Source of the DNA: Candidatus Thorarchaeota archaeon
GTDB taxonomy: Archaea; Asgardarchaeota; Heimdallarchaeia; Hodarchaeales; Hodarchaeaceae
NCBI GenBank assembly: GCA_048882505.1
Contig: JBHLRO010000032.1
Coordinates: 1-32,000, forward strand
Reading direction: 5' to 3'
DNA: 32,000 bases
In this document: piece after piece, positions 19,749 through 23,759 of the stretch
How the letters are laid out: every line of letters starts with the position of its first letter
Position numbering within the stretch: the stretch's first letter is position 1
Notes under the pieces: model-generated
Databases searched by the model: none
The model's input: only the letters and a program-made list of their open reading frames with translations
What the model was told of the DNA's origin: nothing
Position numbers and translations under genes: made by a program

Positions 19749-20279
19749 TCAGATACTTCCCTTCTTGGTTCGATACAGCTGTCTAATGGTACTTATTTGG
19801 CCGTGATGATAGGAATCATGGTGAATCATCGTGAATATGATCCTTTTAACAGGCCACAAGTCCCCCCAGTTGGTAGAAACCTCTAGTTCCAGTTGCTCAT
19901 CGGTTAACAACCGAATGCTTTCCACTAATCGCTCTTGAGTCTGTTTCAAGTAACTAACGCACATGGGCCATTGGGGCGAATCCAGGGCACTCCACTTTAG
20001 GTGACGCTCCCTGAAAGCGTAATCATCATACATTATTTTGCAATGCGCTAGATGTACCACCTTAAATTCAATGGTAGAAACAGGATCAAATTTTTGTGCC
20101 CTTAGCCAATCGCTTCCTTTTTCGTTCCACCTTTTTATGGTATCTAACGTCATCGAATTAGGAGTCGGCAACCATCTAGCCTCTGTTTTTGACAGCATAG
20201 CTAGGAGTTTAAGTAGCTCCTGAAAACGGTATTCCAATTCCCGTTCTATAATAGGAATAATCTTTCGGTCAGCGGTCAT
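19749..20279 (-). CDS. DinB/YfiT-family metal-binding protein
   Basis: VVHLAHC and MIHHDSYHHGQI provide the three-His site. Confidence 0.88.
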   Translation of the reverse strand: MTADRKIIPIIERELEYRFQELLKLLAMLSKTEARWLPTPNSMTLDTIKRWNEKGSDWLRAQKFDPVSTIEFKVVHLAHCKIMYDDYAFRERHLKWSALDSPQWPMCVSYLKQTQERLVESIRLLTDEQLELEVSTNWGDLWPVKRIIFTMIHHDSYHHGQISTIRQLYRTKKGSI

Positions 20280-20471: not shown

Positions 20472-20885
20472 TTATTGCGGTGAATCGCCGTGATGGAGGT
20501 CAATCGAAGATAAGACAGGATCTTTGCCTTTTCTAACAATCATAACTACGCCATCACATACATCTGGACAGCAATCAACCAGAAATCCCAGTATCTTTTG
20601 AACTCGCATTGTTACTTCGGTCACCATCTCCTTACCCTTCAAAGTCAGCGCATACGTTCGGATCCGTTTATCTTTTCGGGCATCCAATGTTGTTTCTTTG
20701 ATGTAACCTTTTTCTGACAATGATTGGACGATCTTATAGGTAGCTCCAGTGGTAGGAGTCCAATTCTCGCCTAGATCATTCCTGATCTTTTTTACGATTT
20801 CTGTACCAGATAAGGACGAGGAATTGTAGAGTGACATTAAAAACAGGGCTTCTAAAGAGGTTATCTCAATATTCTTGCCGATCAT
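20472..20885 (-). CDS. PadR-family winged-helix regulator with C-terminal CCxxxC
   Basis: SGTEIVKKI...WTPTTGATYKIVQSLSEKGYI...RTYALTLKGK; DCCPDVC after the wing. Start at ATG 20885 (track start 20894). Confidence 0.88.
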   Translation of the reverse strand: MIGKNIEITSLEALFLMSLYNSSSLSGTEIVKKIRNDLGENWTPTTGATYKIVQSLSEKGYIKETTLDARKDKRIRTYALTLKGKEMVTEVTMRVQKILGFLVDCCPDVCDGVVMIVRKGKDPVLSSIDLHHGDSPQ

Positions 20886-20958
20886 ACTTAACACATTGAG
20901 TTTGTTAACAGTTCTCCAATTCTCGAAGTGTTTTTTGTCATTTTCCCTGACCTCAAAA

Positions 20959-20966
20959 TATATAAA
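20959..20966. promoter_or_regulatory. TATA element readable in both directions, between padR and arsM
   Basis: TATATAAA on +, TTTATATA on -; an A-rich BRE-like flank lies upstream on each strand. Confidence 0.55.
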
Positions 20967-20975
20967 TATTTGTTT

Positions 20976-20993
20976 CTTTGGAATATTCCAAAG
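20976..20993. promoter_or_regulatory. Perfect 18-bp palindrome CTTTGGAATATTCCAAAG, putative PadR operator
   Basis: Exactly self-complementary; 10 nt downstream of the TATA on the arsM side; further AATATT hexamers at 20965, 20995 and 21008. Confidence 0.7.
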
Positions 20994-21053
20994 GAATATT
21001 GATTATGAATATTTGCCAATCCAATCGTTAGAATCTTAAAAGAAGGAAATCCT

Positions 21054-22082
21054 ATGACAAGTCTTGAAACATCCAAGAAGGTAAAAGATGAACAAAAAAA
21101 TACCGATTCGAAAGCTAATATCGAATCGACGTTTGTAGAGGCCCTTTCTGACCGCAACTACTCGTGTTGTGGGTCTGAATCATCTTCTGAAGAGAGCTCA
21201 CCAAAGACAATTGATGATACCACCGTGAGGAGAGAAGTTCGGAAACAATATCGGGCAATTGCTACTGAGACTAACCAATCTGAAGACGATGGATCTGAAA
21301 TTCTCAAGCAAAACCTTGAGACGAGTGGCTATACGTGGTATTCTGAGGAAGACCTAGATAGTATTCCCCAAGGGGCTAATCTAGGTTTGGGTTCAGGTAA
21401 TCCGGTCAAGCTGGCGTCAGTTCGACCAGGCGAGGTCGTGGTTGACCTTGGTTCAGGAGCGGGAGTAGATGTATTTCTCGCCTCGAAGAAAACGGGGAGC
21501 AACGGAAAAGTCATAGGAGTGGATATGACTCCAGAAATGGTTGATAAGGCACGTAGCAATGTTCGATCAGGTAAATACGACAACGTCGAATTTCGACTTG
21601 GTGAAATCGAACATTTACCTATTGCAGACAATACTGCGGATCTCATAATTTCAAACTGCGTTATCAATTTATCCGTTGATAAATCGCAGGTATTCCGTGA
21701 TGCTTATCGTGTTCTAAAGCCTGGGGGTCGATTGGTGATTTCAGACATAATCTTGGAGAAAGAACTTCCAAAGGTTGTAAGGGACGCAATTCAGCACGTT
21801 CCTGGATGTCTTACAAGATCGCAAACGGAACGAGAGTACCTCAGTCTAATCGAATCCGCTGGATTTGTTAACGTCGAAACATTGGATAAAATGATCCTTT
21901 CCCCTCGGGATTCGCAGAATAAGAAGCTATTAGAAGAGAATTTTGAAGGGACACGGAAGGCTCGCGTCATTCTGGATGGAAAGCCCGTCGAAATAGATAT
22001 GTCTGCTGAGGAAATCAAGGAATTATCAACGTCTATTTCTGCTGCCCACATCAGAGCGATAAAACCCAAGATAGGCCCTTGA
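21054..22082 (+). CDS. arsM: Arsenite/methylarsenite S-adenosylmethionine methyltransferase
   Basis: LGLGSGNP, VDLGSGAGVD, GVDMTPEM, GEIEHLP, IISNCVINL, RVLKPGG, GC, IRAIKP. C202 and C252 are 50 residues apart, as for the core ArsM pair. Confidence 0.88.
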   Translation: MTSLETSKKVKDEQKNTDSKANIESTFVEALSDRNYSCCGSESSSEESSPKTIDDTTVRREVRKQYRAIATETNQSEDDGSEILKQNLETSGYTWYSEEDLDSIPQGANLGLGSGNPVKLASVRPGEVVVDLGSGAGVDVFLASKKTGSNGKVIGVDMTPEMVDKARSNVRSGKYDNVEFRLGEIEHLPIADNTADLIISNCVINLSVDKSQVFRDAYRVLKPGGRLVISDIILEKELPKVVRDAIQHVPGCLTRSQTEREYLSLIESAGFVNVETLDKMILSPRDSQNKKLLEENFEGTRKARVILDGKPVEIDMSAEEIKELSTSISAAHIRAIKPKIGP

Positions 22083-22424: not shown

Positions 22425-23759
22425 CTATATTGGCATTTTCTTACCCAGGTATTCATCTGATTCCCAAAATTCATCTGAATCCCTTGTTTCGCGTTTCCAC
22501 CATTTTTTGCTTTCCTTTGGACGTTTGGAGATCCTTTTTTTAAGCGATTCATAATTTCGTTTGAAAAATCCAATCTTGGGTTCCTCCCCACAAACGGTTC
22601 TTCTTGGAATCTTTGGTTTTCCCTTTCCTCGATCCAACCAGACCCAAAGAGGATTAAATACTGGTAATTTTCTTATTATGAACAGTCTAAGCCTCCTAAA
22701 AAGACTGCGGGGCTTGCCAAATTGGCAAACGGCCAGGCAATTAGAACAATCCGAGGTATTTAATGTCCAGTACTGATAACACGTGTCAACGTTCACGTAC
22801 CACTTATATGTGGCGCCGGAATTATTGGAGGGGGTTTTCCAATGGCTCTCCCAAGTGGGATTTTTATCGAAAGGGATAGCCTGGGGAGGGCAATATTTCG
22901 CGCACTTCTGACAAACTTGGCAATATTTTCTAACACCAAAAAAGGTTGGGGAGTCTGATTCCATTGGAAAATCGGTAAATACTTTGCATATTCTGACATT
23001 CGGACCCAACCTAGGATGAATAAGCATTCCGTGCCTCCCAAATTCGCCCAGTCCGGCCTTGATGGCAAGAGGGACTGAGAGTCCTACATCATTTCCCGCT
23101 TGAATGGCAGTATAACCCAGATTCCGAAGGAATTCTCCCATTAGCGAAATCGAAAAGGCCATTCTTGAATACGCATCTCCGGTCGTAATACTAGCAGGAA
23201 GTTCCGGTGACGTTCTCAAAGCCTCTGCATCCATCTCTATGAGCAATATGATTGCATATTTGACCCCTTCTGGTAATTTCAGTGGACTTCCGTCGTCATT
23301 ATGAGAATAGATTAACTTCGGATCTATCTCACAAATCCCCACGTCAGCCGCGCCAAATATCTGCCCGACTCGTTTAACGGTTTTCGAATTGATTCTGGGA
23401 TCCTTGGATTCATATTTAGGAAGAGTTGTACTAAGTTGAGTCAATTCAACTTTTCCAGGATACGGTATACGATCCCAGGAAAAGGCTTGTGGGTATTTAT
23501 CGTAGATCGTCCATGCTGCTGATTGTACAGCATAACCCACTCGACTATATCCTTTCTTCCCAACCATTGTTCCCTGTTTTTCGGCCAAAGTCTTTCCGTA
23601 TGCTCTGTATGAAGGATCCCATCTAACCCGGGAAAAAATCACATTCCTTTGCGAGAATTGTGAAAAATCCTCTTCTAGCATTGCATAACCTAACTTGTTG
23701 CTCCAAAACTCCCTTTCTTTCGATCGTTTCTGTTCACTTAACTGCATCGAATGAACCAT
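22425..23759 (-). CDS. Reductive dehalogenase-like cobalamin/2x[4Fe-4S] protein without Tat signal
   Basis: FGAADVGI, YSRM, AGND, AGLGEFGRHG, GPNVRICKVFTD, CQVCQKCAKYCP, CYQYW...CSNCLAVC. Confidence 0.85.
   Translation of the reverse strand: MVHSMQLSEQKRSKEREFWSNKLGYAMLEEDFSQFSQRNVIFSRVRWDPSYRAYGKTLAEKQGTMVGKKGYSRVGYAVQSAAWTIYDKYPQAFSWDRIPYPGKVELTQLSTTLPKYESKDPRINSKTVKRVGQIFGAADVGICEIDPKLIYSHNDDGSPLKLPEGVKYAIILLIEMDAEALRTSPELPASITTGDAYSRMAFSISLMGEFLRNLGYTAIQAGNDVGLSVPLAIKAGLGEFGRHGMLIHPRLGPNVRICKVFTDFPMESDSPTFFGVRKYCQVCQKCAKYCPPQAIPFDKNPTWESHWKTPSNNSGATYKWYVNVDTCYQYWTLNTSDCSNCLAVCQFGKPRSLFRRLRLFIIRKLPVFNPLWVWLDRGKGKPKIPRRTVCGEEPKIGFFKRNYESLKKRISKRPKESKKWWKRETRDSDEFWESDEYLGKKMPI

Follow-up and report, generated by a model that had tools for sequence, protein, structure and literature searches.

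In the genome of an Asgard archaeon, an arsenite methyltransferase gene (arsM) and the gene for a PadR-fold regulator with a vicinal cysteine pair (CC-PadR) face each other across a shared three-box operator. On the strength of sequence comparisons, the unit probably constitutes an arsenic switch that is not of the ArsR type. Arsenic-responsive transcription is textbook ArsR/SmtB biology. The reading that we favour, with somewhat better than even confidence, is that CC-PadR is a dedicated, dimeric, local regulator of arsM, a repressor in its apo form that is released when a trivalent arsenical binds at its thiolates. If this is true, a sensor on a PadR scaffold would be a third independent solution to arsenic sensing and the first in Asgard archaea, with relevance to the control of arsenic methylation in anoxic sediments, a setting in which little is understood of how arsM is regulated. 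It would also provide a compact set of parts: a 137-aa protein, an operator that fits three boxes into 35 bp, and natural variants with two, three and four cysteines. Such variants could reveal how the choice between As(III) and MAs(III) depends on the number of thiols, and the parts might be of use in biosensors.

The regulator gene, arsM and their shared control region

The regulator gene occupies positions 20472-20885 on the reverse strand (137 aa, the stop codon being included in the coordinates) of the window, by which we mean the whole 32,000-nucleotide stretch that was analysed; its contig belongs to a 4.32-Mb assembly that is 94.6% complete. The product matches the Pfam PadR model PF03551 with 40.8 bits (E 2.2e-10; gathering cut-off 27), and the assignment also draws on an AF2 model and Foldseek matches described below. 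As the start codon, ATG at 20885 is preferred over GTG at 20894 because orthologues open with MIGKN or MFGKN. The complete set of cysteines in the protein is C105, C106 and C110, all within the motif CCPDVC, whose codons lie at 20556-20573 on the reverse strand (extending to 20576 when D104 is included).

A sequence-only reading of this DNA had described a PadR protein with a C105-C106-x3-C110 cluster, placed head-to-head with arsM in a window lacking an ArsR gene, and each of these points holds: the family match is clear and there are exactly three cysteines, the divergent spacer (20886-21053) measures 168 nt and the neighbouring product scores above the cut-off for ArsM, and the ArsR-type HTH_5 model (PF01022) has no match anywhere on the contig. 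Elsewhere in the genome the same model has 28 matches. The regulator itself does not match HTH_5 at E<=0.1; the MarR model PF01047 gives nothing significant against it, and HTH_27 and HTH_34 match weakly, below their cut-offs. On sequence grounds the protein is at most ArsR-like in its working, and membership of the ArsR/SmtB family fails.

Just downstream of padR and on the same strand lies a DinB_2 or mycothiol-S-transferase-like gene, 19749-20279(-), whose product might serve the cassette as an accessory thiol transferase. In the leader of padR, an upstream ORF of 17 codons was dropped from consideration, as it is not conserved in a relative with 85% identity.

The divergent partner, arsM, is found at 21054-22082 on the forward strand (342 aa, stop codon included), and its product scores 294.7 bits against the NCBIfam arsenite methyltransferase model NF008823 (cut-off 263). 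This protein has a vicinal N-terminal pair (C38/C39), C202 (in SNCVINL) and C252, of which the last two correspond to Cys174 and Cys224 of CmArsM. The full set of four conserved ArsM cysteines (Cys44, Cys72, Cys174 and Cys224 in CmArsM) is incomplete in the window ArsM, in which the alignment puts a serine at the Cys72 position (GLGSGNP, residues 109-116, versus GCGNP in the solved ArsM 5evj). The serine variant also occurs in the clade of this ArsM, with the N-terminal CC, C202 and C252 kept. Across loci, four have an ArsM with the canonical GCGNP, and these are exactly the loci where PadR carries CCPGCC or CCPSCC; at the 13 loci with the serine variant, the PadRs do not have those motifs and are CC-only or CCxxxC. 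This pairing of ArsM variant with PadR motif is only suggestive, because the split follows clades.

Convergent with arsM is a gene for a 444-aa protein, 22425-23759(-), with a 4Fe-4S dicluster and a weak C-terminal match to reductive dehalogenases (PF13486, E 0.004); a counterpart stands next to arsM at L001, in the 85% relative, and, weakly, at L088. Two genomes of the same genus have a 184-191-aa ORF directly 3' of arsM (L086:8144-8719(-) and L087:8196-8750(-)) that looks flavin-reductase-like by eye. A third ArsM-like gene, on contig C13, was set aside: its catalytic Cys is absent (NNVINL) and it has no adjoining regulator.

The 168-nt spacer is the control region common to the two genes. 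Box A (GGAATATTCC, 20980-20989) is enclosed in a perfect 18-bp palindrome at 20976-20993, and is followed at 13-bp steps by box B (20993-21002, AATATT core at 20995-21000) and box C (21006-21015, core at 21008-21013). Adjoining box A is an A/T-rich, TATA-like element at 20956-20972, which has a counterpart in orthologous spacers, where a ACATTTTTAAAG / ATTTATAAA-type element stands a constant distance beyond the last box; it is a candidate promoter for padR, or a candidate bidirectional one. Another A/T-rich, TATA-like element, on the forward strand at 21034-21042, lies 12-20 nt upstream of the arsM ATG, and similar A/T-rich elements occur in orthologous spacers at about -16 to -28 of arsM. 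It is a candidate arsM promoter that would yield an mRNA with a short leader.

Palindromic boxes of the form (G)GAATATT(C)C are present in two to four copies in every arsM-linked spacer. Exact AATATT cores number 53 over 17 upstream regions (160 nt each), compared with 5.4 in shuffles (maximum 14 of 500), and the spacing between boxes is exactly 13 bp in 25 of 36 cases. Within the 4.32-Mb genome, the triple AATATT-N7-AATATT-N7-AATATT occurs once, which points to a local regulator of the padR-arsM pair. Searches of the same genome for a second site (AATATT-N7-AATATT, or GAATATTC-N5-GAATATTC with <=2 mismatches) returned nothing convincing outside the spacer, and no such operator was found near the acr3 gene; a wider regulon that might include acr3 was consequently rejected as unsupported by the genome-wide box searches. 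The operator also differs from that of known PadR proteins. PadR operators of the type ATGT-N8-ACAT, seen for the PadR-s2 group, have a half-site spacing of 12 bp, which the 13 bp of the CC-PadR boxes resembles, so that both have inverted half-sites about 12-13 bp apart; the ATGT-N8-ACAT pattern itself, which is usual for PadR proteins without being a strict mark of the family, is not what is conserved here, where there is instead a three-box AATATT-N7-AATATT array of (G)GAATATT(C)C boxes with a 13-bp period.

The CC-PadR subfamily and its vicinal cysteines

Relatives of the regulator are few. The closest in the databases is a protein from a Candidatus Heimdallarchaeota MAG, with 85% identity and the same arsM-PadR arrangement, and it was the single relative returned by a word-indexed protein search. 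Among 1.8 billion representative proteins, searched exhaustively, only 17 relatives reached E<1e-10. The vicinal CC is near-invariant across alignments of these relatives. When a profile was searched against 400 Asgard genomes, 19 subfamily members were found at E<=5e-33, with a clear gap between them and the generic PadRs (E>=2.6e-21). As judged from these comparisons, CC-PadR is a small, distinct subfamily, mostly from Heimdallarchaeia, and is defined by its invariant vicinal pair C105-C106. In an alignment of 31 sequences with identities down to 26%, C105 and C106 are invariant, as are the fold-core residues G47, Y50, K51, Y78 and G84; because its invariance equals that of the fold core, the pair is not a chance feature.

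The third cysteine has a different history. Only the window genome and the relative at 85% identity carry CCxxxC, with C110. The motif reads CCPGCC in three orthologues, a Cys close to the very C-terminus is seen in four, and seven that are linked to arsM contain no cysteine besides the pair. A canonical S3 site for As(III) therefore cannot be the mechanism of the family, and since the third Cys is mostly absent, the family-wide site comes down to two thiolates. The sequence-only reading had proposed a three-cysteine site like that of AfArsR, to be expected throughout the arsM-linked orthologues. Half of this stands: the pattern is present in the window protein (C105, C106, C110) and the pair is invariant in all 31 sequences, but C110 is found in two genomes only, the third Cys is missing from most arsM-linked orthologues, and the triad is not conserved.

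The AF2 model of the regulator (mean pLDDT 84.8) has helices at 10-19, 27-38, 46-58 and 82-105 and a wing formed by strands 62-64 and 77-80, and its tail beyond about residue 111 is of low confidence. It thus shows the arrangement that marks the PadR family, a winged helix followed by a long C-terminal dimerisation helix (a4). Since a4 (82-105) ends at residue 105, the CC pair sits at the helix terminus. Foldseek matches of the model are winged-helix proteins of the PadR, MarR, F-93 and RosR kinds, including LmrR and Bacillus subtilis PadR.

As a homodimer the protein reaches an ipSAE of 0.60, versus 0.00 for the best control. Of 30 proteins whose solved structures pair two copies of one chain, 20 attain this mark, as does 1 of 23 whose solved structures contain a single chain; the pass may, however, reflect likeness to the PadR dimers that have already been solved. 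The homodimer runs agree in >=72% of contacts, with a partner pLDDT of >=74. The interface is made by residues 88-113 and 1-42, with the two-fold axis near residue 99, and C105 and C106 touch the partner chain at its residues 17, 18, 20 and 37. The model suggests that the CC pair lies at the subunit interface, forming two separate sites per dimer, each between the helix end of one chain and the DNA-binding domain of its partner. This modelled geometry resembles that of ArsR sites at helix ends (PMC11868830). A four-thiolate site shared between the subunits was rejected as unsupported, since the confident cross-contacts of the dimer model set C105 and C106 against residues 17-20 and 37 of the partner and not against its CC pair.

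Linkage to arsM and other CC-bearing regulators

An ArsM homologue (44-85% identity, by tblastn) is adjacent to and divergent from the regulator gene at 16 of the 19 subfamily loci, and at 0 of 11 generic PadR loci searched in the same way. The 16 linked loci span five families and two classes, although such counts overstate independence because the lineages are related. Two ArsM partners that were spot-checked scored 300 and 327 bits and are true ArsM. Outside this set, a metagenomic CC-PadR relative with 35% identity likewise faces a divergent gene for a true ArsM (355.8 bits); a 64-aa Cys-rich ORF (L082:3697-3891(-), GCCTPITCC) lies between the two.

The two genes also come and go together. 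In the window's genus, the arsM orthologue is present in all 11 genomes with CC-PadR (the window genome included), and CC-PadR is present in none of the 10 genomes without that arsM; in genus g17, the PadR is found only in the two genomes that have a full-length arsM. Pairwise identities of PadR and ArsM correlate with r=0.82 over 120 pairs (37-85% identity). When the window genes were compared with five other genomes, there was no synteny beyond padR and arsM themselves. Given this co-occurrence, the covariation of identities and the lone synteny, padR and arsM behave as one inherited cassette. The co-occurrence of a cysteine-bearing PadR with arsM, which the earlier reading had named as a check, is in this way seen across genomes for the CC pair, with CCxxxC itself limited to two of them.

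Where CC-PadR is not the neighbour of arsM in Heimdall archaea, other regulators with vicinal cysteines may be. In a genome of the same genus (G063), an ArsR-family (HTH_5) protein with the motif FSCCD, L058:998-1462(+), is encoded upstream of the orthologous arsM, L058:1507-2472(+), whose product is 52% identical to that of the window; this is an apparent non-orthologous displacement of CC-PadR by an ArsR. A DinB_2 gene is convergent with, and downstream of, arsM at that locus. In genera g5 and g9 (>20 genomes), a 93-125-aa protein of the AbrB/MazE type (PF04014) directly precedes arsM on the same strand and has an N-terminal CC-x8-9-CC (e.g. EPCCP...GCCH); examples are L066:1116-1397(+), L075:999-1289(+) and L088:3662-4039(-), with about 20 further loci (L066-L081). 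This protein is a candidate for a second non-ArsR arsenical regulator. The window genome itself has, on contig C10, an ArsM-like paralogue, L015:2272-3057(+) (247 aa, motifs SCCGS and ECCPPE), divergent from a gene for a 261-aa TrmB-family regulator, L015:1438-2181(-), whose extreme C-terminus reads CC-x6-C.

Four unrelated scaffolds (PadR, ArsR, AbrB and TrmB) thus stand beside arsM with vicinal cysteines, which argues that the CC pair is an arsenical-sensing element; this replacement of one scaffold by another appears to be the strongest argument for a sensing role over a structural quirk. Two further proposals of the sequence-only reading draw strength from these comparisons. A PadR-fold regulator tied to arsM in the place usually taken by ArsR accords with the pairing at 16 of 19 loci, the conserved operator and the replacement by other CC-bearing regulators, and the cysteines are the most plausible sensing element, given that the ArsR, AbrB-like and TrmB-like regulators at the side of other arsM genes bear CC as well.

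Known systems, proposed mechanism and alternatives

Thiol-based arsenical repressors are known on the ArsR and MarR scaffolds, with their ligands bound at helix ends (PMC11868830; bioRxiv 10.1101/2021.08.12.456183). Among ArsR proteins, AfArsR of Acidithiobacillus ferrooxidans has a type 2 site made of Cys95, Cys96 and Cys102, and SpArsR of Shewanella putrefaciens 200 uses Cys101 and Cys102 and is selective for MAs(III), As(III) sensors having three thiolates (PMC11868830). Like both, CC-PadR is a winged-helix protein (a dimer by prediction) with a vicinal Cys pair ending its C-terminal dimerisation helix; in cysteine pattern the window protein, with a third Cys four residues on, resembles AfArsR, and most orthologues, having the pair only (seven with no other Cys), resemble SpArsR. 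It differs from these two in its family (PadR PF03551, without HTH_5), its operator and its archaeal host, and in adjoining arsM alone, whereas the ArsRs control an efflux operon.

The closest precedent off the ArsR scaffold is MarR_ars (AdMarR_ars of Achromobacter), a repressor responsive to As(III) and Sb(III) that is built on a winged helix of another family; apart from this MarR subfamily, we found no tested exception to the ArsR rule. It has vicinal Cys36 and Cys37 plus a distant Cys157, lies next to its target gene or in divergent orientation to it, and binds at both promoters (bioRxiv 10.1101/2021.08.12.456183). MarR_ars is thus a precedent for a vicinal Cys pair on a non-ArsR scaffold with an adjacent or divergent target gene; it differs in being an experimentally tested bacterial MarR with an N-terminal pair and arsV as its target, whereas CC-PadR is known from its sequence. 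The window protein does not belong to MarR_ars, as it has no significant match to PF01047 and its cysteines are at other positions. A search of the literature on PadR in connection with arsenic, arsM, the ars operon or TRASH returned no characterised PadR arsenic sensor, and one incidental STRING link in Exiguobacterium.

In the mechanism that we propose, the apo PadR dimer would bind the three (G)GAATATT(C)C boxes, which follow one another at a 13-bp period between the two candidate promoters, and would repress transcription of the divergent arsM, and probably of padR itself. In the window protein, As(III) would be bound via C105, C106 and C110; in the CC-only orthologues, the CC pair would bind MAs(III), or As(III) together with another ligand. 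Binding of the arsenical would then disrupt the contact between the helix end and the winged-helix domain of the partner, so that DNA is released and arsM is induced. The sign of regulation is taken by analogy with other repressors.

A more specific version of this mechanism is conceivable, and we hold it tentatively. CmArsM requires Cys44 and Cys72 for methylation of As(III), and can dispense with them for methylation of MAs(III) (PMC6138428). Because Cys72 is dispensable for the latter reaction and is a serine in the window ArsM, the module may be directed at MAs(III): CC-only members would be SpArsR-like MAs(III) sensors, paired with an ArsM lacking Cys72 in a defence module that senses and methylates methylarsenite. 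Extra cysteines (CCxxxC, or CCPGCC beside a four-Cys ArsM) would retune the sensor to As(III), and vicinal cysteines would have been grafted at least four times (onto PadR, ArsR, AbrB and TrmB) in Heimdall archaea.

A broader role for CC-PadR as a sensor of soft metals or thiol stress (Cu, Cd, Zn, Hg or disulfide stress), with arsM as one output of a response to thiophilic metals, is in our estimate unlikely. It is suggested in part by members away from arsM. Three of the 19 subfamily members lack the arsM linkage: two more distant ones (L039 and L040) have unrelated neighbours, and the third, at L025, keeps the same operator boxes in its spacer and faces a metallothionein-like, Cys-rich 52-aa peptide, L025:1980-2138(+), in which nine of the last 16 residues are Cys and which ends in NCCPECCGGCCGTGCC. 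The Cys-rich ORFs at L025 and L082, both divergent from CC-PadR genes, have no Pfam or NCBIfam match and are possibly metallothionein-like buffers of arsenicals or metals. A CC-PadR with 39% identity (P0017; L083:216-560(+), CCQGM, no third Cys) adjoins not arsM but a CopZ-type 2Fe-2S/HMA metallochaperone, L083:610-1407(-). From the Cys-rich peptide and CopZ neighbours it follows that the scaffold may respond to soft metals more generally. Finally, in the distant PadR relatives P0030 and P0065 the dimerisation helix is followed, at the equivalent C-terminal position, by a CxxC...CCxxC insertion that weakly resembles a TRASH domain (PF24273, E 4e-5, below cut-off), and the CC of the subfamily aligns with the second Cys pair of this insertion. 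Membership of the window protein in TRASH (C-X2-C-X19-22-C-X3-C) was itself rejected, CC-x3-C being a half motif only. Against the soft-metal reading, 16 of the 19 members pair specifically with arsM, the operator array occurs nowhere in the genome but in the padR-arsM spacer, and the replacement regulators at other arsM genes carry the vicinal CC that is a hallmark of arsenical sites. Disulfide stress in particular is disfavoured, since vicinal Cys pairs make poor disulfide switches.

It is similarly improbable, we think, that CC-PadR senses arsenicals through its CC pair as an activator or dual regulator of arsM instead of a simple repressor. The boxes lie between or upstream of the candidate TATA elements of the two genes, a position that would fit archaeal activators; the characterised PadR, ArsR and MarR_ars proteins, however, are repressors released by their ligands (PMC11868830; bioRxiv 10.1101/2021.08.12.456183). 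In addition, should arsM be served by the conserved A/T box at 20956-20972, its transcription would be expected to start beneath the boxes, a placement that suits a repressor.

In overall build, CC-PadR is like the PadR-s2 proteins (LmrR of Lactococcus lactis, CdPadR_0991 and the Listeria PadR 6abt), which have about 110-140 aa and combine a winged helix with a single long C-terminal dimer helix; it differs from them in that their ligands, aromatic compounds or drugs, are bound in a hydrophobic pore, and in that none of them has the CC motif. That CC-PadR is an ordinary PadR with an organic (e.g. aromatic) ligand or none, its cysteines structural or incidental and its link to arsM merely positional, is the reading we find least credible: characterised PadR proteins do bind phenolic acids or drugs, and two of them are among the Foldseek neighbours named above, but the CC pair is conserved like the fold core across 26-85% identity, the pairing and the operator are conserved as well, padR and arsM are gained and lost together, and independent scaffolds next to arsM also carry CC.
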